A stretch of DNA of 64,000 nucleotides, from contig DAIDBH010000017.1 of assembly GCA_027310185.1 (NCBI GenBank), positions 96,001 through 160,000 on the forward strand, read 5' to 3'. This stretch comes from Thermoplasmatales archaeon. GTDB taxonomy: Archaea > Thermoplasmatota > Thermoplasmata > Thermoplasmatales > Thermoplasmataceae. The position numbers and the translations under genes were made by a program. This document shows positions 39,516-62,736 of this stretch, in pieces; position 1 is the first letter of the stretch, and the number at the start of each line of letters is the position of its first letter. The notes under the pieces are model-generated. The model saw only the letters and a list, made by a program, of their open reading frames with translations, searched no databases and had not been told where the DNA came from.

Positions 39516-39587
39516 GGGCCGGTAGATCAGGGGTAGATCGCTTGCTTCGCAAGCAAGAGGCCTCGGGTTCAAATCCCGACCGGTCCA
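39516..39587 (+). tRNA. tRNA-Ala(CGC)
   Basis: Cloverleaf: GGGCCGG/CCGGTCC acceptor with G3:U70, anticodon arm CTTGC-TTCGCAA-GCAAG, T arm TCGGG-TTCAAAT-CCCGA, discriminator A. Confidence 0.95.
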
Positions 39588-39596
39588 TTTGTCAAA

Positions 39597-39738
39597 CTAT
39601 ATCTCAATAACTTGAATACCAAACTTTTTGCATTTATTATGCAGTTTTTTTTATCAAAGGGGACTAAAGGTACATTTCTCGAATATGCATCTTAACCTAT
39701 TATCCGGTCACTGAAATTCCTGGTTCCCACCATGGATC
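39597..39738 (-). pseudogene. decayed 3' fragment of vapC (paralog of 61674-62081)
   Basis: High nucleotide identity to 61674-61820, with a poly-T frameshift and an in-frame TAA. Confidence 0.8.
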
Positions 39739-39830
39739 TCTGTTAGCTGGTTTCTTGTCTTATGAGTGAAGTTCACACCCATGCAGGAATGAATTCCTCA
39801 CCGATTGCCGTTCATTCAATCTTCCGATCC

Positions 39831-41270
39831 CTATGTTTTCTTGTAAATCTCGCGTTCTATGTCTGAAAGATCCATAAGAATCACATCACTAATTGGCTCT
39901 TGCAGTGTCCATTTGAATCCGCTCTTAGAAAACACAGCATAGCTATATTTCTTTCCGGGGTACTGCTTTCTCAGTGTTTCCGACTTTGTCCTTAAGGCTT
40001 CAACTATACTTATGGGAACTGGGCTGTTTGTCCACTTGCATTCAGCGAAAAGCAATTCTCCTCGTGTTTCGGAATATGCAACGATATCTATCTCCTCAAC
40101 GTCCCTGCCCTTTTTGTTGGACTCATTCCTGCCCCACCATCTGGAAACCGTATCAAATGATCTGCCCAGTATCCCTTCCAATATGAGCTCCTTCATGAGG
40201 TTCTCAAACTGCTCACCCGCAAAAGTGGGGAAATCATCCACTATGATCTTAAGAATCTCTTCATTGCGAGAATTCTCAATCTCGCTCTTGTGTGGCAGTA
40301 CATACCTGAACCAGAACTTCAGATACGGGTCGGATATCCAGTTTAATCTTCTCTTAAATTTCTCAGAAGCTCCAAAAGGTTTCTCCGGAATAACTAAGCC
40401 CAGTGACATGAGCACGTCCAGATATTTTGATACCATGCTCTTGTCCAGACCGGAATAGGCGCATATCTCCCCCAATGTATGATTTCCGTATGAAATGGAT
40501 CTGAGAATCAGCATGTAATTCCTAGGTTCCCTAAATTCAGTTCTGAGAAGAAAATCTGCCTCCTCGTAGAGGGGCGCTCCTTTTGAAATGATGCTTTTTG
40601 AAACGTTTTCCCAGAATCCCGTATCAGGATCAAGTTTCAGGAGGTAATCTGGTATGCCGCCAAATACAAAGTATGTATTACATAAATCTTCGAACCCATA
40701 ATTCACGAATTCTGACAAGTATCTGAACTTCAGTGGTCGTAACTGCAATTGGCCTGTTCTTCTGCCGTAAAGAGGGCTCCTGTAAGAAAGCACCTCATTT
40801 TCCATCATGCTGATAGAAGAGCCTGAAAGAATCAGCATTACGTTCTTCTCCCTCAGTACGGTGTCATATACCTTCTGGAATACCGACGGTATTGCCCTGT
40901 TAGCCTCTATGAGATATGGGAATTCATCTATGACAATTATGATCTTTGATTCACGTGCTTTTGCTTGAAATGAACTGCTCGAAGTCAGAACAGTGAAAAG
41001 AGAGTGCCAGTCGTCGAAATTAGCCATAAGGATGCTTTCATCACCCAGGAACTTTGACATAATGGCTTTGAAGCTGTTTATGTTCTCCCTGTCTCCCTCT
41101 GCAGTTGCAAGAAAATAAACACCCCTGGTGCCTAGGAACTTGCTGATCAATTCGGTCTTCCCAACCCTTCTCCTGCCATAAAGGATGAATAGTGAGGGCC
41201 CTTTCGCAGACATGGCCCTTTCCAGGATTTTCATTTCTTCGATCCTGTCAACAAACTTTTGTTGAGACAT
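39831..41270 (-). CDS. archaeal AAA ATPase with C-terminal DUF234 (PD-(D/E)XK-like) domain
   Basis: FVDR.EE, YGRRRVGKT, IDEFPYL, SGSS.SMM, WW...EEIDIVA...FAECKW. Confidence 0.85.
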   Translation of the reverse strand: MSQQKFVDRIEEMKILERAMSAKGPSLFILYGRRRVGKTELISKFLGTRGVYFLATAEGDRENINSFKAIMSKFLGDESILMANFDDWHSLFTVLTSSSSFQAKARESKIIIVIDEFPYLIEANRAIPSVFQKVYDTVLREKNVMLILSGSSISMMENEVLSYRSPLYGRRTGQLQLRPLKFRYLSEFVNYGFEDLCNTYFVFGGIPDYLLKLDPDTGFWENVSKSIISKGAPLYEEADFLLRTEFREPRNYMLILRSISYGNHTLGEICAYSGLDKSMVSKYLDVLMSLGLVIPEKPFGASEKFKRRLNWISDPYLKFWFRYVLPHKSEIENSRNEEILKIIVDDFPTFAGEQFENLMKELILEGILGRSFDTVSRWWGRNESNKKGRDVEEIDIVAYSETRGELLFAECKWTNSPVPISIVEALRTKSETLRKQYPGKKYSYAVFSKSGFKWTLQEPISDVILMDLSDIEREIYKKT

Positions 41271-41343
41271 AAGTATTATACTTTAGTCACAACGAATATT
41301 TATACATATCTCGGCGTGATTTACTGAGCTAAACATCCAAGAC

Positions 41344-41382
41344 ATATACCATTATAATATTAAGCAGATCTCGACCTTTCCT
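41344..41382 (+). repeat. degenerate copy of the 39-bp cassette site
   Basis: ATATACCATTATAATATTAAGCAGATCTCGACCTTTCCT aligns without gaps, 26/39 to consensus. Confidence 0.55.
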
Positions 41383-41405
41383 TCAAGTTTTAATTCCTTG
41401 AATTT

Positions 41406-41451
41406 TTGATAGAGTAGAGTTCTGGCATTGCCCAGAACTCTACTCTATCAA
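41406..41451. repeat. perfect 20-bp inverted repeat with 6-nt loop
   Basis: TTGATAGAGTAGAGTTCTGG-CATTGC-CCAGAACTCTACTCTATCAA. Confidence 0.9.
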
Positions 41452-41540
41452 TTACGGAGATGCAGAAGCGGTCAAATGCACCTCAGTGACATATTACCAA
41501 AAATTATGGAGATAGGGTTAAAAAATATGTGTGATTTTTC

Positions 41541-42095
41541 TTATTTTTCGCCAGAATTAATCTCCGCCAGCTTGGACCAATTCCTGTATTTTTTTTCTAT
41601 GTAGTAATCAAGACTATATTTGCTTGTTCCAAAGGCGCCGTTTATCAGTATGAGCAGAAGAAATACAAGCACATAAATTATGCTTGTGCCTATATCGGTC
41701 GCACCGTATATGTAAAAACCGCCGAAACCCTCTGGTACGGACCACATAAAGAAGCTGAAGATTGCCCCAAGGAAATAGACTATTTTCCTCAATAAACCAA
41801 ATAGTATTGCTAACGCAAGCAGAGTCTCAAGTAAAGCAATAAGCAATGCAAACAGGTACGGATCATAGGACGTTACATTGATCCAAAACTGAAACCACGG
41901 CATCATCCAGGACGGCTGCTGAATCATTGAGCTCTGAATCATGGATTCGAACCCACTGAAGAATGCGGGTTGCCATTTGAGCCATGCATCGGCGAGCCAT
42001 ACCACCCCAAACAGAACGCGCATAATCACTTTATATCCGGCCATATTCCTTACAAACCAGTTTCCATTTGCCATAGCATTCATTGTTTGATTCAA
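41541..42095 (-). CDS. DoxX/DoxD-like membrane protein
   Basis: R..FG..WL.DA.LKWQP, E...ALA...G, W...EGFGG; overlaps copA stop. Confidence 0.6.
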   Translation of the reverse strand: MNQTMNAMANGNWFVRNMAGYKVIMRVLFGVVWLADAWLKWQPAFFSGFESMIQSSMIQQPSWMMPWFQFWINVTSYDPYLFALLIALLETLLALAILFGLLRKIVYFLGAIFSFFMWSVPEGFGGFYIYGATDIGTSIIYVLVFLLLILINGAFGTSKYSLDYYIEKKYRNWSKLAEINSGEK

Positions 42096-44167
42096 GTTAC
42101 CACCACTCCTTTTTCATATTTCTGGATAAGCTTTGATACGTTGCGTCTCAACAGAAGTGAATTAAGAACCACGGATGTGGAACTCATCCCCATGGCAAGT
42201 GCTGAAAGTATGGGCAGAAATGAATAGATCGACAGGCCAAACAGTGGGACAAGTAACCCTCCGGCTACAGGGATTAATGCAGTGTTGTAACCAAACGCCC
42301 ATCCAATGTTCTGCTTGACCTTCCCTATGGTTTTTTTGCCTATGATCTTGGCATATACCACATCATTGAGATCGTTTTTGAGGAGTATAATGTCTCCACT
42401 CTCCCTTGCGATATCGGTGCCCGAACCCATGGCAATTCCGACATCGGCTGTTTCCAGAGCCACAGTATCGTTGATTCCATCTCCAGTGAAAATTACATGA
42501 TCCCCTGCTGCCTGATATTTCTTTATTATTTCTGATTTGTCTGCAGGAAGCACCTCGGCGTGAATATCATCGATTCCAAGCTGATTTCCCACTCTTCTTG
42601 CTTCTTCCATGGAGTCCCCGGTTATCATTGAAGACCTAATTCCCATGGATCTGAGGCCTTTTATGGCAGAAACGGCTTCCTTCCTGATGACGTAGGAAAG
42701 TGAAATGAACCCCCTTTCCTCGTTATCAACATTCACTGATACGGTCGATCCCCCTTCCTTCTTTGCTCTTGAGACCCTGATTTCCTTATCATTTACCCTG
42801 CCTGTAATCCCTACGCCGGGAATCTCCTTAATTTCCGTCGCTTCGAATAGAGGAATCTTCTTGTTCTCGGCCAACGCAACTATGGCTCTTGCGATTGGAT
42901 GGTTTGAGGCTGATTCAACAGAAGCTGCTAGTGCAATGACGTTTTCCTCAGAGTCGGCAGGAGAGACAGAAATTCCTGTAACCACAGGATCCGGCTCGGT
43001 AAGTGTTCCGGTCTTGTCAAAAACGGCCCGTGTTGATTTTGACAATCTATCCAGCGCACTTACATTCTTCACTATTATGCCGTTCTCAGAAGATACGTTG
43101 GACGAGATGAGTAGAGTAATTGGTCCAGCAAGGCCAATGGCACAGGGGCAGGCGACAACCACGACAGAAACAAAAGCAAGGATGCCTATTTCAAGCGCCA
43201 GCGGATATCCTACGCTTGAAAGATAGAAGTACCAGAAAAGCGAAGCCACAAGAGCGGATGAAATAACGATGGGAACGAATACCGAGGAGAAAACATCGGC
43301 AATTCTCTGAACTTTGACCCGGCCGGAACTCGCTCTCTGTATGAGTTCGTATATCTGACTCACCGTGCTGTCTTTTCCAGTCCTGGTTACGTTTATTCGA
43401 ATAACACCGTTAAGGTTCTTAGTGCCTGATGCCACAACCTGACCGGCGGACTTCAGAACAGGCTCCTGCTCTCCAGTGAGCATGGATTCGTCCACCTCGC
43501 TCTTGCCTTCATATATTATTCCGTCGACCGAGATCACCTCGCCAGGCTTTACTAATATTTTATCGCCCGGTCTTATCTCATCGGTCTTCTTGTCAGTGAT
43601 ATCACCAAGGCTGGCGATGTAGTGGACAACGTTAGGTATCATTCCAATTAGCTTGCTGGCTGCTCTGTTTGCCTTCACCTTTGTGAGGTTTTCAATGAAA
43701 TTACCTGTTAAAATAAGAGTCACGATGAAAGACGATGCATCAAAATACACCTCGGAAGGTGGAATTGAGCTTGGTCGAGCGATTGTTACATAGGCGGAGA
43801 ACACGAATGCAGTAAGAGTTCCCAAGGAAACTAGCAAATCCATGTTTGCCGATCTGCTCTTTAATGCATGATATGAACCCTCATAGAATCCGTAGCCGGA
43901 ATAGAATTGGACAGGCAACGTCAGGATGAGGAGAAGATAATTCAGGTAAAAAATGGAATGTGAAAAACCATATGTGATAACTATAACTGGTATAGAAAGT
44001 GACCACCCAACAATCAGTCTGCGCTTGAGCTTCCTGGCTTCGGTCTCAGGAGATGAGTACTTCTGCTGGCAGGTTTTTGAACAAAAATAGTATGTTTGCC
44101 CGTCGACTACCGACTTCAGGTCAGTATCCTCCGGTACAAACATTCCACACACTGGATCAGTTGGCAT
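42092..44167 (-). CDS. copA: copper-translocating P1B-type ATPase with N-terminal TRASH/YHS domain
   Basis: DPVCGM..YYFCS..C, TGE, CPC, DKTGT, HP, GDGIND, YN, MxxSS. Confidence 0.93.
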   Translation of the reverse strand: MPTDPVCGMFVPEDTDLKSVVDGQTYYFCSKTCQQKYSSPETEARKLKRRLIVGWSLSIPVIVITYGFSHSIFYLNYLLLILTLPVQFYSGYGFYEGSYHALKSRSANMDLLVSLGTLTAFVFSAYVTIARPSSIPPSEVYFDASSFIVTLILTGNFIENLTKVKANRAASKLIGMIPNVVHYIASLGDITDKKTDEIRPGDKILVKPGEVISVDGIIYEGKSEVDESMLTGEQEPVLKSAGQVVASGTKNLNGVIRINVTRTGKDSTVSQIYELIQRASSGRVKVQRIADVFSSVFVPIVISSALVASLFWYFYLSSVGYPLALEIGILAFVSVVVVACPCAIGLAGPITLLISSNVSSENGIIVKNVSALDRLSKSTRAVFDKTGTLTEPDPVVTGISVSPADSEENVIALAASVESASNHPIARAIVALAENKKIPLFEATEIKEIPGVGITGRVNDKEIRVSRAKKEGGSTVSVNVDNEERGFISLSYVIRKEAVSAIKGLRSMGIRSSMITGDSMEEARRVGNQLGIDDIHAEVLPADKSEIIKKYQAAGDHVIFTGDGINDTVALETADVGIAMGSGTDIARESGDIILLKNDLNDVVYAKIIGKKTIGKVKQNIGWAFGYNTALIPVAGGLLVPLFGLSIYSFLPILSALAMGMSSTSVVLNSLLLRRNVSKLIQKYEKGVVVT

Positions 44168-44178
44168 GTTTATTCTCC

Positions 44179-44319
44179 TTACCTGCTATATTTCAGGGGA
44201 TTCTTGTCGAATTCTTCCTTGCAGTGGCTGCTGCAGAAGTAGAACGTTTTTCCCTGAAACTCACTCTTCAGGTCAGTGTTCTCTTTCACTTTCATTCCGC
44301 ATATCACATCTGTTGCCAT
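44179..44319 (-). CDS. TRASH/YHS-domain metallochaperone (CopM-like)
   Basis: MATDVICGMKV...FYFCSSHCKEEFDKNP.KY, directly upstream of copA. Confidence 0.85.
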   Translation of the reverse strand: MATDVICGMKVKENTDLKSEFQGKTFYFCSSHCKEEFDKNPLKYSR

Positions 44320-44394
44320 AGTTATGAATTGTGATGCGATACATATATTATTACCATTCATAATGTTAAAGTAGTTGAGTAAAATCATTACATT

Positions 44395-44934
44395 ATGAGA
44401 AGAAACATTTCTGAATTGGAACAGAGACTCATATTATTACTCAAGAGAAATTCCAGGATGAGTATAGTTGACATAGCAAGGGAACTGGGTACAAGCAGGC
44501 TTACAGCCAAGAAGGCTCTGGACTCCATAGTATCAAGCGGAAGGATCAAAAAATTCACAATCTCTCTTGCCGATGAAGAAATAGATATGGTTCTTGTATA
44601 CACCGACAATTTAGAGAATATACCAGAAAATATTATCCTGGAACGCTTCTGTTTGATAGATGGATCCTATATGATAATCCTGTACTATGAGGACCTTATA
44701 AAGATAAAGAAGGCAAACATAAAAAGAGTTGAAATAGCAACCTCCAGGGAGGTGAATGAAAACATGACCAGGGCGGAAGGCATCCACTGCGATTACTGCA
44801 GAAAGGAGATCAAGGACAATCCGATCTCATTAGAAATAAGGGGAAAGACATATTATGTGTGCTGTCCGAACTGTGAGAGAGACCTTAAGAAAAGAGGAGA
44901 GGTAATTCTCGAGGAAAATTCCGGACATCAGTAG
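44395..44934 (+). CDS. Lrp/AsnC-HTH + TRASH copper-responsive regulator (CopR/CopT-like)
   Basis: N-terminal L..NSR.S..DIA.ELG HTH; C-terminal CDYC...YY.CCPNC; divergent from copM-copA. Confidence 0.85.
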   Translation: MRRNISELEQRLILLLKRNSRMSIVDIARELGTSRLTAKKALDSIVSSGRIKKFTISLADEEIDMVLVYTDNLENIPENIILERFCLIDGSYMIILYYEDLIKIKKANIKRVEIATSREVNENMTRAEGIHCDYCRKEIKDNPISLEIRGKTYYVCCPNCERDLKKRGEVILEENSGHQ

Positions 44935-45065
44935 AAACAAATACAGATGAAAAGGGGCATGAGGTATTTCCACTCAAACTGTTCTCATAATGTTTAGTAC
45001 ATTGTAGTGTTCTGGACAGTTTGGGCAGTTATATTATAAATAACTGAGAAGAATTATAATTAATT

Positions 45066-45479
45066 ATGAATGGGAAAAGAGATTCCCCTACCGGGAGGGG
45101 TTCGCTGTTTGACAGGTCTGAAAATGACCAGACGGGCAGAAATTCCAACATTTCAGAATTAATATCTGTTGGGAAGGGGAATGTTGAATTGGGAAATGGG
45201 GTGGTAAAGATTGCAGAAGGAAAATATCTCGTCTTGGAGTTGAGCGAAGAAAAGGGCCCTTGCCCCGATAATATGTGCCAATTGAAAGCTGAAATTAATA
45301 TAAGAATTCTTGGCAGCATCAATGATCCATCCTCATATGAAATAATCAGAACAGATAAATTCACGTTGGCCATAAGCAAAGCTGTATGGCATGCTATAGA
45401 TAAAGGCAGGCAGGGTATTTCCATCAGGAAAGGAAGATTTGGTAATCTCAGCGTAAAGGGATTCTCACTAACCTACTGA
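45066..45479 (+). CDS. hypothetical protein
   Basis: ORF co-oriented with downstream cluster, CxxxxC motif. Confidence 0.5.
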   Translation: MNGKRDSPTGRGSLFDRSENDQTGRNSNISELISVGKGNVELGNGVVKIAEGKYLVLELSEEKGPCPDNMCQLKAEINIRILGSINDPSSYEIIRTDKFTLAISKAVWHAIDKGRQGISIRKGRFGNLSVKGFSLTY

Positions 45480-45603
45480 CAACTCTCTGCTCTTTTGTAC
45501 CCCACATAGAAGACGAATGGTCTCACTCTATAAGGTAACTTATCATTGTGTATGCATATACTTACCAAAATTTACAGATTGAATAAGGCATTGTTTTATA
45601 CAT

Positions 45604-45813
45604 TTGCATAATTTCGTAAATATGTCTTGTGGATGTATGAAGAATGCAGGAAATGATATGGGAAAGCAACACATGCACAGCCACGGTGGTGAGGAAAACC
45701 TCCCAGCAGACGATACTAAATCTGCACTGGGCATACTGAATGAGAGGTATGCAAGAGGAGAAATCGCAAAGGAAGAGTATTTAAGCATGAAGAATGAAAT
45801 TTTGTCAAGGTGA
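45604..45813 (+). CDS. SHOCT-domain protein with His-rich N-terminus
   Basis: ALGILNERYARGEIAKEEY SHOCT motif; HMHSH. Confidence 0.75.
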   Translation: MHNFVNMSCGCMKNAGNDMGKQHMHSHGGEENLPADDTKSALGILNERYARGEIAKEEYLSMKNEILSR

Positions 45814-45817
45814 AATA

Positions 45818-46216
45818 ATGGCAACTGAATACAGAGTCAAATCAAAGCATTCCTTCGATGAGGTGTGTGACAAGATAAGAGAGATCGTACCACCAAATGG
45901 TTTCTCAATACTATCTGAGATCAGGACAAGCGACATCTTGAGGTCAAAGGGATTTGAATATCCTAATCTCAGAACGTTTGATATTTGCAATGCCGGTTAC
46001 GCCAACAGGGCACTTTCTCTTGACACACGGGTTGAAACAATTATTCCATGCCATTTGATAGTAAAGGAAGCAGAGAATCATACGGAAGTATCTGTTCAGC
46101 TGCCCAGAGAAATGTTTGACTCCCTCCACACGGAGGAATCTGAGGAAATGGAGAGTTTCATGAGCGAAGTTGAAGCAAAACTTAAGGGTATTGTGGATTC
46201 ATTCGCTGATGAGTGA
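45818..46216 (+). CDS. DUF302 family protein
   Basis: GFSILSEI, ICNAGYA, IPCHL; paralog of 11185-11571. Confidence 0.8.
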   Translation: MATEYRVKSKHSFDEVCDKIREIVPPNGFSILSEIRTSDILRSKGFEYPNLRTFDICNAGYANRALSLDTRVETIIPCHLIVKEAENHTEVSVQLPREMFDSLHTEESEEMESFMSEVEAKLKGIVDSFADE

Positions 46217-47034
46217 AGAGTGTATTACTTGACTTTACAAAGTTTATTGAGGTGTCCGGCGTGAATGATAACGATTGGATAAGCACAGTTTTATCTTCGC
46301 CCTTCATGAAAATAATGGCGGACAGTCTCAACAGGTCTAGCAATGAGATGGATCCAAGGGCAACACCGCTATACAAGGCAGTGATCGGACATGTCGGCCC
46401 TGAACGCACAGTTATCGACATAGGCGCAGGCGTCGGTAGATTTGCCATCCCTCTTGCACAGGATGGAATAAAGGTAACCGCAGTTGAACCCAGTGATGAG
46501 ATGCGCAGACATCTGAAGGAGGCTATAGCAAGCAGTGGTCTATCGTCCGGAATAAATGTAGTCCCGTCTTCGTGGCCTGTAGATAAGGCCCTGACCGCGG
46601 AGGTAGTCTTCGCATCATTTGTCATTCAGTTCTCCAAAAATCCTATGGAATTTATCCATGCCATGGAAAGGTCTGCAAGGAATCAATGTATACTGTCTGT
46701 TCATGTGGACCAGCCACTTGAGTTTTTAAGAAATATCTGGCAAGTTTTCCGTCCTACAGAACCCGTGCCTGTGATGCTCACTTTTTCTGATCTTTATCCA
46801 ATGCTCCTGAACATGGGCATCATAGCCAATGTTGCGATTATAGAGGAAAAGCGTATGTCCAGGCCAGTGATGGAACCTGCCAAGATCATTACACTGCTTT
46901 CCGACCTCCTGAGTATCAGGGATAAGCCTGCAGACATGCAACGACTGAAGGAAATCCTGGAGGGCATGAGAAGCCGGATTCAAGAGCCACCTTCCATGAG
47001 AACTGCCATTGTCTCATGGCAGCCCAGGAGATGA
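46213..47034 (+). CDS. class I SAM-dependent methyltransferase
   Basis: VIDIGAGVGRFA, AVEPS..M. Confidence 0.85.
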   Translation: MKSVLLDFTKFIEVSGVNDNDWISTVLSSPFMKIMADSLNRSSNEMDPRATPLYKAVIGHVGPERTVIDIGAGVGRFAIPLAQDGIKVTAVEPSDEMRRHLKEAIASSGLSSGINVVPSSWPVDKALTAEVVFASFVIQFSKNPMEFIHAMERSARNQCILSVHVDQPLEFLRNIWQVFRPTEPVPVMLTFSDLYPMLLNMGIIANVAIIEEKRMSRPVMEPAKIITLLSDLLSIRDKPADMQRLKEILEGMRSRIQEPPSMRTAIVSWQPRR

Positions 47035-47768: not shown

Positions 47769-47782
47769 GGAGAAGAGAGATT

Positions 47783-48830: not shown

Positions 48831-48832
48831 AC

Positions 48833-53570: not shown

Positions 53571-53609
53571 GTATTCGCTTAAGACTTTAATCAAATCCCG
53601 ACCGGTCCA
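53571..53609 (+). repeat. 39-bp cassette/att site
   Basis: GTATTCGCTTAAGACTTTAATCAAATCCCGACCGGTCCA (38/39). Confidence 0.95.
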
Positions 53610-54532: not shown

Positions 54533-54605
54533 CTTAAAAACTCAATCAAATTGTATATTATACTAAACATAAACTATTAGAATATGTACAGTATATTATA
54601 CAAAT

Positions 54606-55907
54606 ATGGTAACAATTGAAGATTTCAAGTACGTTTTAGCACTCTGGGACAGTCACCAAACATCGGATCTTATAGAACGTGATATAAAAATTGATCTGGA
54701 ATCAAAGAAGATAATTGCAATTGCCGGAGCAAGACGCTCTGGAAAAACCTATGTGATGTTTCAGTGCATGAATGATCTTTTACAAAAAGGTGTTAAGAAG
54801 GATAATATTATTTATGTCAATTTTGAGAACGAGAGACTCGTTGGAGTAACGGCCTCTGATCTTGATAGCCTTCTCATTGCACATAAGGAGCTGTTTGATC
54901 CAGACGGGACGATATACGTTTTTCTTGACGAAATACAGACTGTTGAGAATTGGGATAAATGGGTCAGGAAGGTCTATGATACTGGAAAGTATCGTCTAAT
55001 AATAACTGGATCCTCTTCTGAATTGCTAAGTAGCGAAATAGCCACTTCACTGGCAGGAAGAAATCTTACATACATTGTTTATCCATTCTCTTTCAAAGAG
55101 TACGTTGCCGCAAAGGGCCTGAAAGTTAACAAACTGCAAAAATATTCCATTGAAAAGGGAATCATTCTTAAGGTAATGAACGATTTTCTAGAATTTGGAT
55201 CATTTCCGGAAGTAGCAATGACAACCGGCGTTACAAGAAAACTGGAGATACTTTCATCTTACTTTGATGCAATTTTCTACAAGGATATAGTGAGAAGATA
55301 CAGAATCAGGGAAGTTGGAGAGTTAAACATCTTTCTTAAAATCCTTTCCAGTAGCTACGCCTCATATTTCAGTTCAGTAAAGTCGCTTAATTATTTCAGA
55401 AGTACTGGAAGGAAGATAAGCAGGGTAACATTGTTGAATTTCCTTGATTATTCGAAATCAGTTTTTCTTGTGGGTCTACTTGAGAAATACGAAAAGAGTG
55501 TAAGAAAGCGCATATCTATGCAATCAAAGACTTATATAATAGACATTGGTATTTCTAGGCTTTTCTCTGACATTGATAAGGGAAGGGCATTGGAAAACGC
55601 AGTTTTCATTGAGCTATTAAGGAAGAAAGAAGCTACAGAAAGCATAAACTATCTCAAGCTTAAATCTGGCAAAGAAGTGGATTTTATTATTGGAGGTAAA
55701 ACCAAGGAGGTCATACAGGTATCTTACGAAGTCTCTGCACCAAGTACCAGGTCTCGCGAGACCTCCGCACTTGTGGAAGCTGCCAGAGGTATTGGACTGA
55801 AGACAGGGAAAATAATAACCTACGATTATGAAGGGGAAGAATCAATTGATGGGATTTTAATACAATACATACCATTCTGGATTTGGGCTTTATCCGATAT
55901 AAAGTAA
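54606..55907 (+). CDS. AAA_14 ATPase with C-terminal DUF4143 domain
   Basis: GARRSGKT, YVNFE.ERL, FLDEIQ, ITGSSS, K.YIID.G, LEN.V..EL, EVDF. Confidence 0.88.
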   Translation: MVTIEDFKYVLALWDSHQTSDLIERDIKIDLESKKIIAIAGARRSGKTYVMFQCMNDLLQKGVKKDNIIYVNFENERLVGVTASDLDSLLIAHKELFDPDGTIYVFLDEIQTVENWDKWVRKVYDTGKYRLIITGSSSELLSSEIATSLAGRNLTYIVYPFSFKEYVAAKGLKVNKLQKYSIEKGIILKVMNDFLEFGSFPEVAMTTGVTRKLEILSSYFDAIFYKDIVRRYRIREVGELNIFLKILSSSYASYFSSVKSLNYFRSTGRKISRVTLLNFLDYSKSVFLVGLLEKYEKSVRKRISMQSKTYIIDIGISRLFSDIDKGRALENAVFIELLRKKEATESINYLKLKSGKEVDFIIGGKTKEVIQVSYEVSAPSTRSRETSALVEAARGIGLKTGKIITYDYEGEESIDGILIQYIPFWIWALSDIK

Positions 55908-55932
55908 CATCGAATTAATGGCACTCTGGAAA

Positions 55933-55971
55933 GTAATCCCTTAAAGCATTAATCAGATCCCGACCGGTCCA
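55933..55971 (+). repeat. 39-bp cassette/att site
   Basis: GTAATCCCTTAAAGCATTAATCAGATCCCGACCGGTCCA (34/39). Confidence 0.93.
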
Positions 55972-55985
55972 TTCACCATTAAATT

Positions 55986-56480
55986 TCACTTGTTGTCCAA
56001 AGAAATTCCATTCAGGCTTAATCTTAATAATATACTAACAAGACTCTTTCTATCCTGTTCATTTATGGAATTGAAAAAATTCACATCAACCGTTTCTACT
56101 ATTTTTATTGCTCTCTTTGCTATATTGAGTCCTTTTTCCGTGGCTTCCAATATAAACTCCCGCGAATCCTCAGAATTCCTGTACCTTATTATCAGCCTCT
56201 TTTCAACAAGTTTTCTGATAACCTGTGAAGTCATCATCTTATCAGTTTTGGCAAACCTTGAAAGTGTAACCTGATTGATCTTTTTGTCCTCTGTTGACAG
56301 CCATACAACACTTGCAAGAAGTACAAACTGCACATGAGTGAGATTGATCTTTTTCAATTCACTTTGCTGTTTCTTCTGCCAAAGGTTGTTTACCTGCCAA
56401 AGCAAAAACCCTAAGCTGTTTTTGGGAAATCCAAAAATAGATATACGTTTACGTTCCTCATCACTCATTTTACTGGACAT
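55986..56480 (-). CDS. MarR family regulator
   Basis: GFLLWQV.N.WQ, LTHVQF.LL, MMTSQVIRKL, D.R. Confidence 0.88.
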   Translation of the reverse strand: MSSKMSDEERKRISIFGFPKNSLGFLLWQVNNLWQKKQQSELKKINLTHVQFVLLASVVWLSTEDKKINQVTLSRFAKTDKMMTSQVIRKLVEKRLIIRYRNSEDSREFILEATEKGLNIAKRAIKIVETVDVNFFNSINEQDRKSLVSILLRLSLNGISLDNK

Positions 56481-56515
56481 ATTGCATCCCGTTAATAATT
56501 GACTGTGGAATTGCC

Positions 56516-56944
56516 CTATTCCTCTTGAAGCGCAAGCTCGGAAATTTCTCTTATAGTTTCTGGTATTGCAGAAGTTAATGAAAGTCCCATCTCTTTTCCT
56601 ACTTTATCTCCCTCATTACCATCTATTTCTACTCTGACTGTAATCTTTGTTCTATTTTTTTTCAGAGTTTGTAACATGTGAATGAAGCGAATTACAGTAT
56701 TTGTGCCCGGGATTTCTGATTCATTGGTGAAAGATTTTAGCGGCTCTACTGCTATAAGTCTATAGTTCATCCAGTGTCCATCAACAGACTTTATCTTTCC
56801 ATGAGAGCCTTTCACAAATTTTCCCTCCAGAGTGACTTTTTCGATTCCCCTATCCCATTTGGTCCAGGTTTCAATATTAGACCAAAGTTTCCATATAATT
56901 TCTGCCTTTGCATCTGTTTCCACAAAATATTCATATTGCCACAT
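56516..56944 (-). CDS. SRPBCC/polyketide-cyclase family protein
   Basis: IWKLWS.IE.W.KWD, L.G.F..G..G. Confidence 0.8.
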   Translation of the reverse strand: MWQYEYFVETDAKAEIIWKLWSNIETWTKWDRGIEKVTLEGKFVKGSHGKIKSVDGHWMNYRLIAVEPLKSFTNESEIPGTNTVIRFIHMLQTLKKNRTKITVRVEIDGNEGDKVGKEMGLSLTSAIPETIREISELALQEE

Positions 56945-56959
56945 ATTGTTTCACCATGT

Positions 56960-56977
56960 TAGTATGTATGCATACTA
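56960..56977. promoter_or_regulatory. palindromic operator, likely MarR box
   Basis: TAGTATG-TATG-CATACTA just upstream of the SRPBCC-marR genes. Confidence 0.5.
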
Positions 56978-57226
56978 TATGCATGTATACTATTAAAGGC
57001 TTCGAATAGCAAGTTAAAAAATAAAATTTACAACGGTTTTTTAAGTGACTTGAAACAAGGTTCTCATAATGCACCTTGATGTCGGTAAATTTGATTGAAG
57101 AAAATGAGTATAGAGTATTTAGACACTATTATAACACTTCCAATAAGGTTATGTACTTTTCAGAACGATTATACACATTGCATTGTTACCCATAATAATT
57201 ATATACAGGACATTAATTAGTATAAT

Positions 57227-57412
57227 ATGGAAGAAACCACAATACAGATCAAAAAAATCACAAGGGAAAACCTTAAGAAGATAGGCAGGAAAGGGCAAAC
57301 ATACGATGATATAATAGAGAATTTGCTTGAGATCGGAAAGAGAGTTATGTTTTTCGACGAACTTGACAAAATAGCGGATAACGAGGAGTTTATACCTCTT
57401 GACAAGTTATAA
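57227..57412 (+). CDS. antitoxin partner of RelE
   Basis: TTIQI...T...LK..G....TYDDII..L; overlaps relE start. Confidence 0.75.
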   Translation: MEETTIQIKKITRENLKKIGRKGQTYDDIIENLLEIGKRVMFFDELDKIADNEEFIPLDKL

Positions 57413-57677
57413 TGTTCTTGTCTCTAGAACAGCTATCCGAGAATTGAATGCGCTGAAGGAGATCGATAGGGAAAGAATAAAGGATAAACTAAGAGAACTT
57501 AGCAAAGATCCTCATAACAGTCTAAACCACCTCGATACAAAGAAACTTTCTGGGACTAAAAGAACTTATTATAGACTCCGGGTAGGAGACTATAGGGTGA
57601 TTTATTTCACAGAAGATAGAATAATAAAAGTCGTAAAGATAGCTACAAGATCTGATGTTTATTCATGGTTGGACTGA
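57399..57677 (+). CDS. relE: RelE/ParE family toxin
   Basis: KKLSG...YRLRVGDYRVIY, R..VY. Confidence 0.88.
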   Translation: MTSYNVLVSRTAIRELNALKEIDRERIKDKLRELSKDPHNSLNHLDTKKLSGTKRTYYRLRVGDYRVIYFTEDRIIKVVKIATRSDVYSWLD

Positions 57678-57696
57678 ATGTACTTTAGGTTACTTC

Positions 57697-57735
57697 GTAT
57701 TCCCTTAAAACTTTAATAAAATCCCGACCGGTCCA
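57697..57735 (+). repeat. 39-bp cassette/att site
   Basis: GTATTCCCTTAAAACTTTAATAAAATCCCGACCGGTCCA (37/39). Confidence 0.95.
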
Positions 57736-57743
57736 TTCTAACT

Positions 57744-58121
57744 TTACTTGAACATCTTGAGACCGTTCTCAATAAAAATTTCAAAATGCTTATCCAGGGT
57801 ATAAAGTGAGCAGCCGTCATTAATTGCTATTGACGCAATAATAGCGTCCGTTCTTGGAACTGCCTTTCCTTTTCTTTCAGCGCCTAGTTCTAAAAAGGCA
57901 GACAGTTCACTATCTTTTTTAGTGTATTCCAGCGTTGCTATTTGCAAGACTAAGCGAGAGTCCTTTGAGTATTTTTCTATGCCGTAAAGCAACTCATGCA
58001 TGTTGACTGAGCTCGTGCAATATTCTTCTCCACTTTCCATAATTTTAAGCATGAATTCCTGGCCTCTGCTTGATTTCTTATCCATTACTTCTATGATGAT
58101 GTCGGTGTCAAGAAGAATCAT
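57744..58121 (-). CDS. vapC: VapC PIN toxin
   Basis: LLDTDIII, E..YG, DAIIA.IA, LYTLD.HF. Confidence 0.88.
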   Translation of the reverse strand: MILLDTDIIIEVMDKKSSRGQEFMLKIMESGEEYCTSSVNMHELLYGIEKYSKDSRLVLQIATLEYTKKDSELSAFLELGAERKGKAVPRTDAIIASIAINDGCSLYTLDKHFEIFIENGLKMFK

Positions 58122-58330
58122 CTTCTCTTCTCCAACCGTTTATCTTTTATTCCAGCCAGGAACTCATCCCTGTTCTCAAATTCCATGCTTCCACGTAGAG
58201 TCAAAAGGATTTCCTTCTTGCTCTGTGATTTAACAAGTCTATCCAGAAGTTCACTGAAGCTTTCGTTCTCTTTTTTAAACCCTATCAGTTCGTCATAAAC
58301 TGAATTCTTAATGGTTATGGTTTTTGACAT
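58118..58330 (-). CDS. vapB: VapB antitoxin
   Basis: KTITI...VY..L...K...ESFSELL.RL; ATGA overlap with vapC. Confidence 0.85.
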   Translation of the reverse strand: MSKTITIKNSVYDELIGFKKENESFSELLDRLVKSQSKKEILLTLRGSMEFENRDEFLAGIKDKRLEKRR

Positions 58331-58491
58331 AACATATGTTTATGTTTAAACATTACTTATACTTTTAGACAGATAAGGTTAAAATTGCCATACGCCCTCG
58401 AAACCTAAGGTCCTTTTAACATTTTAACAATGCCACTATCTATCCATTTCGAGGTTGGCAACATGCTAATTGATGTCTTGATTTTTTATTC

Positions 58492-58950
58492 TTATGTCAA
58501 TTCCTTTTTGATATTCTCTCCTATGAAATATAGACTGATTGCATAAACTGTCATGACACTGACAGCACTCATTGTCATTCCTATCGACCAGCCGAAGAAT
58601 TGCCCAGACATTAGGAACAAGATTCCGTTTGCTATTGCACCAATCACTCCGGCAAGGATTATGATCGCACATATTCTTAATGACAATAACTGAGTCTTAA
58701 AGCTAAGGATAAGGAATACTAGTGATACTAACAAAATGGCAAATCCCTTAATGATGTGTACCAGAACAAAATCAAAGTGACCCCTTATCCACTTGAAGGT
58801 TTCTAAACTGAATACACAAATGGGAAAATCATTAGCTATGCATGAACATATAGATAAGAAAATACCAAGATATAAAGAAAACCATCCCGTAGCCAAAATT
58901 GGGACATTATAGGTTACAATAGAAGAAAAATCCTTATATTTTACACACAT
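58492..58950 (-). CDS. hypothetical membrane protein (true start uncertain)
   Basis: Hydrophobic ORF; C-terminal half resembles 48351-48830. Confidence 0.45.
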   Translation of the reverse strand: MCVKYKDFSSIVTYNVPILATGWFSLYLGIFLSICSCIANDFPICVFSLETFKWIRGHFDFVLVHIIKGFAILLVSLVFLILSFKTQLLSLRICAIIILAGVIGAIANGILFLMSGQFFGWSIGMTMSAVSVMTVYAISLYFIGENIKKELT

Positions 58951-58960
58951 ATATGTGTGT
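58943..58960. promoter_or_regulatory. perfect 18-bp palindrome, probable VapB operator
   Basis: ACACACATATATGTGTGT, 7 bp before the vapB ATG. Confidence 0.55.
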
Positions 58961-58967
58961 GGATCAG

Positions 58968-59207
58968 ATGGGAAGTAAAAATATATCTATCTCTGATGAA
59001 GCATATCTGAGGTTAGCAGAATTAAAGACTGGAAATGAAAGTTTTACAGACGTTATATATAGACTTACAAATAGGACCAACATACTTGATTTAAAAGGTA
59101 TTATAAAAGAAGAAGAAGGAAAGTCCTTAGAAGAAAATGTTAAAAAATCAAGGAAATTAAGCAAGGAAAGAATAGATAGGATCATAAGAGAGTTAAATGA
59201 ATTATGA
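58968..59207 (+). CDS. vapB: VapB antitoxin
   Basis: KNISISDEAY.RL..LK...ESF.DVI.RL. Confidence 0.85.
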   Translation: MGSKNISISDEAYLRLAELKTGNESFTDVIYRLTNRTNILDLKGIIKEEEGKSLEENVKKSRKLSKERIDRIIRELNEL

Positions 59208-59596
59208 TAGCTGACACTTCATTCCTTATTGACATAATGAAATCTAATAAGGAAGCAATAAAGAAAGCAGAGGAAATTGAAAAAACTGGAAATACTATTG
59301 CCGTTACCTCCATTTCGATTTTTGAATTGTTTGTTGGGGTTAGCCTTAGCATAAAAAAAGATCAGGAAAGAAATAAGATAATTAGAATACTTAAGGGTCT
59401 ATCAATAATAAGTTTTGATGAGGACTCTGCAAGAGAAGCTGGAAAGATATTTGCCCAAAAGAGAACGAATGGATTAGTAATAGATCCGGAAGACTCCATG
59501 ATTGCAGGTATCTGTGCAAGAAAAAATGAAATTTTAATTACACGTAACGTAAAGCATTTCCGTGATATAGAAAATGTGAGAATTGAGAGCTATTAA
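59204..59596 (+). CDS. vapC: VapC PIN toxin
   Basis: DTSFLID, FEL..G, D.MIAG, LITRNVKHF. Confidence 0.9.
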   Translation: MIADTSFLIDIMKSNKEAIKKAEEIEKTGNTIAVTSISIFELFVGVSLSIKKDQERNKIIRILKGLSIISFDEDSAREAGKIFAQKRTNGLVIDPEDSMIAGICARKNEILITRNVKHFRDIENVRIESY

Positions 59597-59629
59597 AAAT
59601 ATTAAGGGCAATGTGCCAGAATCAATTCT

Positions 59630-60009
59630 TTACAGTTCCGAGCTCTTTCTTGTCAATACTTTAGAGCTTGTAATCCCTTGCAGTTTCAAGTCATCCGTTA
59701 CAAAAACGTAACCTGATTCAATAGATGATATAAGATAAGATGAATCGTACAATGTCAGTCCCTCCTCCAATAATAAGGTCAGCACGGAATCAGTTAACGG
59801 TTGAGCTCCATTGAATCAATTAATTCAAATATGACAGCCCCCAATTCTATTGCTTCTTTCTTTGAGATTTTATTTCTAATTTTATGACGTTTCCACAGCA
59901 CGTTGCCTATCTCTCATCTTGTAAGTGGAATCGTTGCCCCAGCGATGAGTACACCATACTTACCGCTCTGAAAGAGGTTGAAAATTGCATAAGCATCCAG
60001 TAGGTTCAT
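59630..60009 (-). pseudogene. vapC pseudogene
   Basis: MNLLDAYAIFN...LTR*EIGNVLWK ... GLTLYDSSYL...FVTDDLKL, with an internal stop. Confidence 0.75.
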
Positions 60010-60226
60010 CTTTCTCGATCTTCCCTGATGTCAGCAATTATTTCATCCAGTTCAACTTTGATATAACGGGTCTAACTCTCTTCATTTTCTTTATTAGGGC
60101 TTTATTACTCGCTTTCCTGATTTCTTCCTTTACAGCCTTTCTTATAATTTCAGTTGGATTCAAACCAAGTATCTTTAATTCTTCTCTCTCTTCTTCTGAG
60201 ACCTTGGCGGATACTGTGGTTTATAT
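60006..60226 (-). pseudogene. vapB-like antitoxin pseudogene
   Basis: TTVSAKV..EEREELK.LG.N.TEIIRKAVKEEI...IREDRER with lost start and a frameshift; abuts the vapC pseudogene. Confidence 0.65.
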
Positions 60227-60338
60227 TTTCGTACTACAAAATATTTTAAGTATATATTAGAATGCTGTATTACCATATATGGTTCAGACTATACTACAAA
60301 GAGAACTTACAAACCCGGGTAACATATTCATAACTATC

Positions 60339-60377
60339 GTACTCACTTAAAACTTTAATCAAAACCCGACCGGTCTA
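60339..60377 (+). repeat. 39-bp cassette/att site
   Basis: GTACTCACTTAAAACTTTAATCAAAACCCGACCGGTCTA (35/39). Confidence 0.92.
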
Positions 60378-61134
60378 CTCTATGAACTTTGCCTGTATTT
60401 GGTTTGTTTTAAATTTCTGGTTTTCCTAGTTTTACTCCTTGATTCCAACCAAAGAACATCATCACAGTATTCCCGTTCTCGTCTAATCGAATCGTTTTCA
60501 AGCTCAAAAATATCAACTGATCTTCTTGAGAATAATTACAACTCTGCTATTACGATTCCTTTTTCCTTGTCTGAAACCAGGTTTAAAACCTTTAACTTTT
60601 CAGGCATGTTTCTATTTGCCCTTATAATTGTCTTCACATAATCACCTTTTCCAATGGCAGTTTATCGCTTAGAGGGAACGTAATGAATCCACGCAACACC
60701 TTTCGAGAGAAACGTTTCGTATAGTTTCTAAACAAGGTTGTTCTTTGAAATGAAGAACTCTGTGATCTTCTCTTCAAGTTCATTTTTTGGTTCTATATTA
60801 ACATCCTTGACTAAACATTACAAACTACGTCAGAGTTACTCAAGAAAGTCCATCACATTTTTCGCATTTCATATGATATTCCTGATACATACTGTCACAT
60901 ATGATGATTGTGTTTTACCGATATATATTCATTAAAATGAATAGAAATGTGCAAATCTCTATACAAATAGAAAATAATGACTTTTCATGCCTAGGAACTT
61001 GCTTTGGATTTCTCTGAGTTCACAAGGACAAAATTATGATTATTTGATGATTTTATCCCCCTTTCCTTAGAAACAAGTTGAAAAAGCAGAGCCTATAAGA
61101 CAAACCTTTATACTATTATTAACTATAGACATCT

Positions 61135-61356
61135 ATGACCACGTCAACTATTCAGGTCAAAGAGGAAACCAAGAAGACCCTGCAATCCATGAAACTTCAT
61201 CCCAGGGAAACCTATGAAGATGTAATTGAGAGGATGATTGAGGACCTAAGCGAATTAAATGAAGAGACCATAAAGGAAGTAGAAGAGGCCAGAAAAGAAA
61301 TAGAATCCGGTAGATTTGTTACACACGAGCAGCTGAAGAAGGATCTTGACCTTTAA
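61135..61356 (+). CDS. antitoxin partner of RelE
   Basis: STIQVKEETKK.L...K....ETYEDVI.R...G.FVT.E.LKK.L. Confidence 0.8.
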   Translation: MTTSTIQVKEETKKTLQSMKLHPRETYEDVIERMIEDLSELNEETIKEVEEARKEIESGRFVTHEQLKKDLDL

Positions 61357-61610
61357 TGGACTATATAATAATCTGGTCTGTTCAGGCTTCTAAGCAATTG
61401 AAAAGCCTTGACCGGTCAATTGCCAAGAGAATTTATGAAAAAGTTGGACAGTTGCGTCAAAACCCGGAAAGATATGTTGAGAAACTTGTTCGATATCCAT
61501 ACTACAGGCTTAGGATTGGGGATTACAGGGTGATTCTTGACATTCAAAAAGAGATGGTTAGAATAATGATTTTGAAAGTCGGACATAGAAGTAGTATATA
61601 TGACAGGTAA
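61356..61610 (+). CDS. relE: RelE family toxin
   Basis: A.KQLK.LD, YRLRIGDYRVI, VGHRSSIY. Confidence 0.9.
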   Translation: MDYIIIWSVQASKQLKSLDRSIAKRIYEKVGQLRQNPERYVEKLVRYPYYRLRIGDYRVILDIQKEMVRIMILKVGHRSSIYDR

Positions 61611-61624
61611 CATTAGATTCCAAG

Positions 61625-61662
61625 GTGTTCGCTCAAAACTTTGACAAATGCCGACCGATCCG
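61625..61662 (+). repeat. cassette/att site (diverged, 1-nt gap)
   Basis: GTGTTCGCTCAAAACTTTGA-CAAATGCCGACCGATCCG (32/39). Confidence 0.85.
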
Positions 61663-61673
61663 TTTTCATCAAG

Positions 61674-62081
61674 CTATATCTCAATAACTTGAATGTCAAG
61701 CTTTTTGCATTTATTATACAGTGTTTTGTCAAATGTGACTAAAGGTACTTTTCTCGAATGTGCATCATAAGCTATTATCCAGTCATTGAGATCTCTGAAA
61801 CTTAGCTTGTTTTCGACCATGAATGCGGATGCCTTCTCCATTATCTTTCCAGATAGCCATGAAACTGTGAAATATTCACTATGCAATAATTCGTCAATCT
61901 TAATTCTAACACTTTCATTATCTATTCCGTATCGGGGAAGCACAAAACCAAGTTCAACAATTGACAGTGAGTTCACTATGGGGTCTTCTGACCTATCGAT
62001 AAACTCTCTTGCACTTTCATGGTGTGGAGAATTCTCTATGGTATCATACACCAGAACATTTGTATCGACAAGCACCGTCAT
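61674..62081 (-). CDS. vapC: VapC PIN toxin
   Basis: VLVDTNVLVY, S..H, VEL, ND..I, LVTFD. Confidence 0.88.
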   Translation of the reverse strand: MTVLVDTNVLVYDTIENSPHHESAREFIDRSEDPIVNSLSIVELGFVLPRYGIDNESVRIKIDELLHSEYFTVSWLSGKIMEKASAFMVENKLSFRDLNDWIIAYDAHSRKVPLVTFDKTLYNKCKKLDIQVIEI

Positions 62082-62314
62082 TTGCTCATCTCTTCCCATC
62101 CCGCCCTTATCTCACTATCAGCATCCATGGATGAAAGCTTTTCTATTGCCCTGAAGGTTATTCGCCCTCTGCGTTTCCTTGTAGAGTTTACACTATTCCG
62201 GAGACGTTGGTTAATGATCTTTGACATATTCTTTGTGCTACCATACTTTTCTATAGATTCTCTGACGATTTCAGCGTAGATTTCTTCATCCAGGTTGATA
62301 GTGGTTTTTATCAT
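62078..62314 (-). CDS. VapB-type antitoxin
   Basis: KTTINLDEE.Y..IV.ES...YG.....SK.IN..LR; ATGA overlap with vapC. Confidence 0.75.
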   Translation of the reverse strand: MIKTTINLDEEIYAEIVRESIEKYGSTKNMSKIINQRLRNSVNSTRKRRGRITFRAIEKLSSMDADSEIRAGWEEMSK

Positions 62315-62700
62315 GAATGTGAATGGTAATACCATATAAACATTTAACGGTAAACTGTCAGTCTTTTAATTAATACGGTTCGCTTATCAAATGCACTATC
62401 TTTTTCGTCTGGAAATAATATTTCAAGAATTCGTGTGACATCCTATTCCAGCTTTCGCAGGGAGCTTCCCACTTCAAAGGTTGCTGGTGGAATCTCCATG
62501 AATTTGGAACCCCCTGTGTCCGAAGGCACTCTATCTTTCATGCTAAGCCATCTGACTTTACAGAAGCATGCACGATTGAAACAATATGCTGTCCGACCTT
62601 TTTCACTTCTGTTTGCGAACACACATCGCAATTTCCCTAAAAAGATAATAGTTTTCGCTACATTTCATCCCCATCTTGCAAAGGTGGAATTCCCGATCGC

Positions 62701-62736
62701 GTATGCTAAAACTTTAATCCAATCCCAACTGGTCCA
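62701..62736 (+). repeat. cassette/att site (diverged left arm)
   Basis: GTATGCTAAAACTTTAATCCAATCCCAACTGGTCCA. Confidence 0.85.

Follow-up and report, generated by a model that had tools for sequence, protein, structure and literature searches.

Here we describe an array of gene units behind a tRNA-Ala(CGC) gene in a Thermoplasmatales archaeon, in which neighbouring units are separated by copies of one 39-nt site. The array lies in a stretch of 64,000 nucleotides (the window), which corresponds to C1:96001-160000 of a 1.88-Mb, 19-contig genome (G000) from the same genus as the complete genome G012. We consider it likely that the units are non-autonomous cassettes which are moved in trans by a tyrosine integrase of about 430 amino acids at two tRNA-Ala arrays. 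We also lean, though with less assurance, towards a broader view: a dedicated integrase and two tRNA-Ala docking platforms for cassette exchange between genera might have evolved independently of integrons in acidic-habitat archaea of the Thermoplasmata lineage. Here a plasmid-like element would deliver the integrase, whereas recombinase-less units of 0.6-4 kb, each with a 41-nt half-attP, would form a shared pool of toxin-antitoxin (TA), defence and metal-resistance genes. The interpretation offered in a preliminary description of the window (small cassettes inserted or shuffled at this tRNA by one recombinase) is thereby supported by comparison of genome sequences.

The tRNA-Ala(CGC) gene was found with both ARAGORN and Rfam (RF00005, 68.6 bits), and is followed on the same strand by eight copies of the site, six strong and two degenerate. 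Each copy combines a 22-nt arm that is foreign to the tRNA with 17-19 nt of the tRNA 3' end: the last 19 nt of the site equal tRNA positions 39569-39587, while the first 20-22 nt are common to the copies and not present in the tRNA. A search with the 39-mer of the preliminary description, allowing up to 3 mismatches, returns the copies at 50977, 52196, 53571 and 57697 (0 expected, based on 100 shuffles), and a repeat finder (family D1) adds those at 55933 and 60339. With a 16-nt core and again up to 3 mismatches there are 9 matches against 0.30 expected, namely the tRNA and all eight copies. These include the matches at 61647 and 62721, which belong to the degenerate distal copies (61625-61662 and 62698-62736) with small indels. 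The start-to-start spacings are 1219, 1375, 2362, 1764 and 2642 bp, followed by ~1286 and ~1073 bp. Conservation of the site sets in abruptly at GTATTC and stops two bases (TT) past the discriminator A; these two bases are found in 74 and 71 of 93 instances, respectively. Apart from the tRNA, the Rfam scan matched no other RNA family. The preliminary description had named the tRNA-Ala(CGC), the eight sites in one orientation (its 62701 is our 62698), the 19 bp identical to the tRNA and the 20 bp common to the copies but absent from it, all of which agree with the tRNA searches, the repeat searches and the alignment. It had further stated that every copy lies between genes. This is true for seven of the eight, located 10-73 nt past the upstream stop codon; the copy at 62698 is overlapped, though only by an open reading frame (ORF) of 105 aa without Pfam match.

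A profile built from the sites confines them to two loci. Scanning the whole genome with the site matrix yields matches only behind tRNA-Ala(CGC) on C1 and behind tRNA-Ala(TGC) on C3, the 3' ends of which are identical; no site was found behind tRNA-Ala(GGC), which has a different 3' end. The C3 array runs on the minus strand (sites 25324, 23362 and 22743, with weaker ones at 21979 and 11347) and contains a type III restriction-modification and helicase block, followed by MarR, ParE/DUF7557 and MazF units. Among 41 relatives the site is present in 15 (7 of 18 genera, 3 families), against 0 matches to a reversed control. An exact 32-mer, searched in the genomes of 185,579 species, occurs in 37 stretches from 26 genomes (counted from titles), all of which are Thermoplasmata-type records except for one uncultured archaeon; in viral contigs the site pattern has 0 matches. 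Over 100 unique site instances the mean conservation is 0.90 for the arm and 0.95 for the core, against at most 0.64 for the 12 upstream bases, and arrays hold up to 8-11 sites.

In many metagenome-assembled genomes (MAGs) a site or integrase gene lies within a few hundred bases of the end of the contig or stretch (for example L056, L060 and L062-L065; likewise L068, L070, L073, L081 and L087). It thus appears that assembly is interrupted at these repeats and that MAGs probably contain too few of the arrays, which may help explain why MAG contigs frequently end at sites. In addition, about a dozen cassettes from different genomes begin with a similar stretch of 20-40 nt (TTCTGAATTTTYCTGATTC...) just after the site; this may be a conserved cassette start or promoter.

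The candidate recombinase was found beside tRNA-Ala in relatives. At both tRNA-Ala genes of G012 an ORF of 429/430 aa starts 49-50 nt downstream, with an Orc1/Cdc6-like gene ~9 kb further on. The same 49-50 nt separate integrase and tRNA in G011 and G041, and a pseudogene takes this place on C3 of the window genome; the window's own array has no integrase at its tRNA-proximal head. In relatives the integrase is part of an element of 16-21 kb at the tRNA-proximal end, which also encodes an Orc1/Cdc6-like protein and carries variable cargo. From the catalytic residues, the profile matches to XerA, the Pfam matches and the database names, we predict that the 429-aa ORF belongs to a lineage-specific family of tyrosine recombinases. 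R152, K196, Y270, G299, H300 and Y308 are invariant among 31 aligned homologues and R273 is nearly so; PF00589 is matched by 8 of the 31 members. The profile of the family detects XerA in the PDB (4a8e at 2.6e-8, 5hxy at 2.1e-5), whereas IntI4 (2a3v) is found at 0.028 only. Taken alone, the G012 copy matches neither Pfam nor PDB sequences. We obtained 1986 database relatives, the best 120 of which are 85-97% identical, and 2043 representative clusters at E up to 0.001. Those of the 120 that are named carry the labels Cuniculiplasma, Acidiplasma or Ferroplasma and the protein name 'site-specific integrase'; the G012 copy itself is labelled Cuniculiplasma divulgatum in the database source. Across genera the integrase is 85-100% identical, and no match was found in the plasmid and phage collections searched.

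The predicted integrase is not split on integration: in 7 genomes the integrated ORF is whole (residues 1-429, no stops). An SSV-type ('suicidal') split integrase was considered and rejected, given that the ORF starts 49-50 nt beyond the core and stays intact. Site and integrase tend to be found together. Counting integrases at 60% identity or more, fragments included, and sites by a strict search, 13 of the 41 relatives (which are not independent of each other) have both, 2 the site only, 5 the integrase only and 21 neither; viewed by site, the integrase accompanies it in 13 of 15 genomes and is found in 5 of the 26 that lack the site.

The integrase family is represented at other loci as well. 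A full-length paralogue (38-40% identity) lies at C17:32154-33479 in the window genome, and 2 kb from it, at C17:35490-35680, are pieces of a more similar copy (65% and 47% identity over residues 62-125); this locus is probably another integrated element. Further paralogues in G012 are located at C1:177484-178764, 1397575-1398876, 865304-866569 and 593202-594506 (73%, 52%, 44% and 38%, respectively), from which it follows that the family has several specificities within one genome. Fragments with PF00589 at C18:149347-149508, beside tRNA-Ile (149159-149233), and at C14:79195-79347, beside tRNA-Val (78883-78955), look like relics of other tRNA-targeted integrations.

To characterize the units we surveyed 65 sequences from this and other genomes, with 124 sites and 46 unique cassettes (overlapping loci duplicate some of the spacings). 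The distance between sites is 619-3807 bp in 56 of 59 cases and exceeds 10 kb in the other three. In the unique cassettes we counted 136 ORFs with a length of 50 aa or more (76 on the plus and 60 on the minus strand), and most cassettes have 2-4 ORFs. Cargo in other genomes includes RHH/PIN, ParE/DUF7557, Fic, SnoaL-like and peptidase S51 proteins, an ABC-2 transporter, a split P-type ATPase, regulators and an insertion sequence. A tblastn search of the 65 sequences detected no integrase remnant following an internal type-1 site. Metagenome contig L091, which is not one of them, provides the sole case seen of an integrase gene immediately behind such a site. On the contig of the window there is no integrase homologue either: none of the 8 PF00589 matches of the genome falls on C1, and tblastn with the cognate integrase returns nothing there.

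Homology between arrays changes at sites in a number of comparisons. Drawing on the 100 unique site instances, we collected 41 site pairs with at least one flank homologous right to the site: both flanks are homologous in 1 pair, the upstream flank only in 21 and the downstream flank only in 19. A 913-bp RHH+PIN cassette is 94.1% identical end to end between G012 and G019, which belong to different genera, while the 600 nt beyond both bounding sites are without homology; a 1196-bp cassette shows the same pattern at 90.7%. A second example is given by G011 and G012, with flanks that are 99.3% identical and arrays that differ by six units (29 kb) and the integrase element. Behind tRNA-Ala(CGC), G011 has one integrase element and one site before the shared part starts, whereas G012 has a different integrase element and six more units before the same site. 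The breakpoint falls exactly on the site, with 4 differing positions in the arms and full identity from the core onwards. Overall, 20 of 221 homology endpoints in arrays are at most 15 nt from a site, where 2.7 would be expected and 2000 random placements never gave more than 10.

The order of the units is likewise variable. Of the 61 genomes of the family, 48 contain pieces of window positions 50900-62800, in matches of module size with a start or end at sites. For contigs with at least two modules on one strand (30, as read from the table) the order is that of the window in 13 and another in 17; only 1 further contig has modules on opposite strands. G014 has its modules in reverse order with the orientation unchanged. 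In six fetched contigs all 25 module matches follow the local site orientation, and 12 of these begin inside a site or the tRNA 3' end. Moreover, a small integrase-less cassette follows directly after tRNA-Ala(CGC) in G071 and G054 (A and D, respectively). The main claims of the preliminary description fit these data: it had spoken of small units with a common att-type site of which no module encodes a recombinase, inserted or shuffled by one trans-acting enzyme. The spacings and the empty recombinase search agree with the former; for the latter, comparison yields a single candidate next to the tRNA that co-occurs with the site, 40 of 41 site pairs that share one flank, a permuted module order and content with orientation kept, and cassettes directly at the tRNA in two genomes.

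A possible attP can be read from the stretch between tRNA and integrase, which is conserved and contains TTAATCGAATAC, an inverted copy of the first 12 nt of the arm. In contig L091 a full site leads into the conserved right arm and then into the integrase start; this is either the attP form or a cassette inserted ahead of the integrase. We infer an attP of ~60 nt in which the 12-nt arm GTATTCSCTTAA and the inverted copy TTAATCGAATAC would surround the 17-19-nt tRNA-Ala core. Both the tRNA-Ala 3' end and other sites would then be partners for the 39-41-nt site in recombination by the integrase, with a crossover position presumably within the site. Integration would restore the tRNA and leave left arm and core behind as a 39-41-nt site where the insert ends distally; each unit of the array does end in such a site, and all sites have one orientation. 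Since the sites are direct repeats, the integrase, acting in trans, could release any single unit or several consecutive ones as a circle with one site. Such a circle, the likely intermediate, would reinsert at the tRNA or at another site; units would keep their orientation but be found in a new order, beside new neighbours and in new hosts. It is also possible that circles join the integrase element and are transferred between cells together with it.

It might be argued that these islands result from accretion and decay only, in which full-size elements integrated repeatedly and lost their integrase while small units never moved alone. This is the textbook route to such islands (PMC5704250; 10.1101/2020.12.28.424599; PMC8371274), integrase elements of 16-21 kb do sit at the tRNA-proximal end, and TA genes would be the last to be lost. 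Decay is also visible in the window genome itself, in which close integrase copies are limited to frameshifted pieces (residues 1-161) right after tRNA-Ala(TGC): at C3:35522-36462 (L009 ~17520-18460) the integrase stub forms a fusion with the C-terminal 156 residues of the Orc1/Cdc6-like gene after a deletion of ~9 kb from the element, and the type III restriction-modification/helicase block follows. Nonetheless, loss of the integrase would have to stop exactly at the preceding site every time, with no remnant after the internal type-1 sites of the 65 sequences searched and nearly all spacings below 3.9 kb. Decay also fits poorly with the same short unit being present in different genera, with both ends at sites and unrelated neighbours, and with a permuted order at constant orientation and units directly at the tRNA. 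We therefore regard this explanation as unlikely. Somewhat less probable still is that host machinery recombines relic 39-nt repeats and that the integrase has no present part. Direct repeats of ~40 nt can support deletion, arrays persist and differ without a detectable cognate integrase (e.g. G022 and G000), and module exchange between tandem archaeal elements has been proposed (PMC8371274). On the other hand, the 22-nt arm outside the tRNA is kept at a mean of 0.90 over three families next to unconstrained bases, which argues for a putative binding site under selection; reinsertion at the tRNA and between genera is difficult with 17-39 nt of homology, and the sites co-occur with the integrase. 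Very improbable, finally, is a true integron (IntI with attC) or a regulatory or RNA repeat unrelated to recombination. The layout is alike, with short TA-rich units that each end in a repeat, and canonical integrons have been reported in archaeal MAGs (10.1101/2022.02.06.479319). The sites, however, are conserved in sequence and lack a single-strand fold: six strands of three sites, folded as DNA, have minimum free energies of 0 to -4.5 kcal/mol (z -0.58 to +1.48). Together with the integrase profile, which fits XerA best, and the ORFs on both strands, this led us to reject the canonical integron; a structured RNA family was rejected because Rfam yields tRNA only.

Several observations weigh against movement of cassettes by the integrase as well. 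The link between integrase and site is drawn from position and co-occurrence in the sequences, and two genomes have sites but no integrase match (one of these, G022, is a single contig). In the window genome the cognate integrase is broken, and as a consequence its arrays are probably frozen unless an integrase arrives in trans. The proposed mechanism gives no account of how a new cassette acquires its site. Arm variants show no clear association with the upstream cassette (3.29 against 3.37 mismatches, p = 0.19). A terminal site was looked for at the right border of the island and none was found. Furthermore, 201 of the 221 homology endpoints are not at sites, and the 99.4% identical block that G011 and G012 have in common in their TGC arrays begins at a position without a site. 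The copper module of unit 1 is inverted between genomes, which indicates that other rearrangement processes also act. The array in G041 has a different type of site, a 44-nt tRNA 3' half. Two such halves, starting from the anticodon loop, lie in the tRNA-Ala(TGC) array on its contig C11 (L088, L089; reverse-complement 19517-19561 and 24176-24219), with unrelated upstream arms and one copy directly before the integrase gene. From these relics it follows that at least one other integrase uses tRNA-Ala(TGC), which suggests another integrase family with a crossover in the anticodon loop.

With respect to known systems, the array belongs to the tRNA-targeting tyrosine-integrase elements, as seen from the catalytic residues and the 19-nt tRNA 3' end that is repeated eight times behind an intact tRNA. 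In behaviour the nearest systems are tandem accretion with cis-mobilizable elements (CIMEs), tycheposon islands and tandem integration in archaea, the last of which is known in archaea generally (PMC8371274). CIMEs have been described in streptococci as att-bounded units without integrase, in tandem with an integrase element at the 3' end of a tRNA or other gene (PMC5704250). The window units resemble them, being att-bounded, beside an integrase element in relatives, without PF00589 or integrase homologue on their contig and in principle excisable by that integrase. CIMEs are, however, decayed elements with usually one or two per locus (PMC5704250), whereas here the host is an archaeon and up to 8-11 sites delimit units of mostly 0.6-3.8 kb that are permuted across many genomes. 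Nothing here shows descent from decayed full-size elements: there are no integrase remnants behind internal type-1 sites in the 65 sequences, yet the C3 element is decaying and unit 1 shares cargo with an integrase element. Tycheposons of Prochlorococcus are tyrosine recombinase elements that target tRNA genes, where successive integrations displace older ones (10.1101/2020.12.28.424599). They have the tRNA targeting, the stacking, the partial tRNAs and remnants and the adaptive cargo in common with our arrays. They differ in that they carry their own integrases and that partial tRNAs mark decayed elements (10.1101/2020.12.28.424599); here the partial tRNA always comes with the conserved 22-nt arm, and small units recur intact elsewhere.

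Archaeal integrases of the non-splitting class are named 'pNOB8-type'. Like the integrase described here, they target the tRNA 3' end and their gene is intact when integrated; the present family differs in being found in the Thermoplasmata lineage only and with arrays of small cassettes. That this second class of archaeal integrases is not split on integration has been described before (PMC8371274).

The preliminary description had called the array a functional analogue of an integron, and in function the comparison is sound: one tyrosine recombinase gene lies beside a primary site, recombinase-less units each end in a site of the same orientation, the cargo is TA-rich, and cassettes are reshuffled and common to several taxa. 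The likeness is one of function only, because the defining features of integrons were tested and a folded attC, an IntI-type enzyme and a single gene orientation were not found. Instead, a tRNA gene acts as primary site, double-strand motifs take the place of attC hairpins, and the integrase is not IntI-like and is carried on a plasmid-like element. Genes face both ways and thus have no common promoter, unlike those of an integron. The integrons reported in archaeal MAGs are of the canonical type, and the available part of that text mentions neither Thermoplasmata nor tRNA (10.1101/2022.02.06.479319). For Cuniculiplasma, genomic islands with TA, restriction and metal genes have already been reported (PMC5155288, PMC12302457). 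Our literature search did not find the site-array structure described in the accessible parts of these sources; the islands and their direct repeats may be listed in Table S2 (PMC5155288) and Table S3 (PMC12302457).

If our reading is correct, the arrays would be a second platform for gene cassettes, archaeal and independent of integrons, made from an ordinary tRNA-targeting integrase and a half-attP tag. This would explain how defence, TA and metal-resistance genes are shared between acidophilic genera of the Thermoplasmata lineage, given integrases that are 85-100% identical and cassettes that are up to 94% identical between genera, and it reveals an internal structure in the 'genomic islands' already catalogued in these genomes. 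The compact pair of a ~40-60-nt site and its integrase would furthermore be a candidate genetic tool for organisms that are hard to manipulate.

The features of the array in the window are provided in Table 1.

Table 1. The tRNA gene, sites and gene units of the array, in window coordinates.
Feature	Position	Strand	Evidence
tRNA-Ala(CGC), primary attachment site	39516..39587	+	last 19 nt (39569-39587, T-loop to discriminator) equal the shared core
Unit 1, 11.4 kb, without integrase	39588..50976		Pfam
Remnant of PIN cassette start, abutting tRNA 3' end	39588..39722	+	84-90% identical to 61669-61797
Site 1 (type-1: 22-nt arm + 17-nt core)	50977..51015	+	64.8 bits, site matrix
Cassette A: 185-aa protein (no Pfam family) and PIN_3 toxin	51016..52195	+	Pfam
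Site 2	52196..52234	+	59.4 bits
Cassette B: 189-aa protein and PIN_3, paralogue of cassette A	52235..53570	+	Pfam
Site 3	53571..53609	+	65.2 bits
Cassette C: AAA_14/DUF4143 ATPase (54606-55907)	53610..55932	+	Pfam
Site 4	55933..55971	+	60.4 bits
Cassette with MarR(-), SRPBCC(-), DUF7557 antitoxin and ParE(+)	55972..57696	both	Pfam
Site 5	57697..57735	+	63.4 bits; many foreign matches begin exactly here (query position 6798)
Composite: module D PIN(-)/VapB(-), 152-aa ORF(-), module E VapB and PIN, module F 91-aa ORF	57736..60338		Pfam
Site 6	60339..60377	+	58.2 bits
Cassette G/H: DUF7557/VapB-like antitoxin and ParE (61135-61610)	60378..61624	+	Pfam
Site 7, degenerate, 1-nt deletion	61625..61662	+	core search, matrix, alignment
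Cassette I: PIN(-) 61674-62099, and piece J of ~280 nt	61663..62697		Pfam
Site 8, degenerate arm, last recognisable site	62698..62736	+	19.9 bits
Island tail without further site	62737..64000		matrix scan, synteny

Unit 1 is by far the longest. It encodes an ATPase_2/DUF234 ATPase, DoxX, a P-type ATPase with YHS domain, a TRASH regulator, DUF302, two methyltransferases, a cupredoxin, a 357-aa protein of no known family and a CDF efflux protein; its copper module is 74% identical, in inverted orientation, to cargo of the integrase element in array b of G012. The 135 nt directly after the tRNA are a copy of the 135 nt after site 61625 (families D5 and D6), from which it follows that the same cassette start abuts both the tRNA end and a site end. 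In several other genomes, too, this PIN cassette start follows sites. The 357-aa ORF (48833-49906) was considered as a hidden recombinase and rejected, as it has no Pfam match at E up to 10; a core-like match inside it (49811-49832, 73%) is weak and was taken as chance.

Most of the small cassettes have counterparts elsewhere, and 3 of the 7 carry minus-strand genes. Cassette A is the one found directly after tRNA-Ala(CGC) in G071, and it lies between two sites in G047. Cassette B has an 84% match in G058 that ends at a site, cassette C an 85% match in the G012 and G011 arrays, and cassette G/H an 80% match in G012 that again ends at a site. The cassette between sites 4 and 5 probably consists of two fused modules, the MarR/SRPBCC pair being present in the C3 array as well. 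Modules D, E and F of the composite are found separately and in other orders in other genomes; the copy of module D directly at tRNA-Ala(CGC) in G054 is 92% identical. Cassette I is the most widespread module, with a match beginning at the site in many genomes. At the right side of the island, synteny with G012 returns only ~2.9 kb past the end of the window.

A weak Orc1/Cdc6-like match at ~18345-19412 (C1:114345-115412) lies outside the array and is probably the chromosomal replication initiator. The 185-aa and 189-aa proteins of cassettes A and B (51142-51699 and 52526-53095) are paralogues, each encoded ahead of a PIN_3 toxin gene. Other genomes contain the same pair, and these proteins may represent an undescribed antitoxin family.

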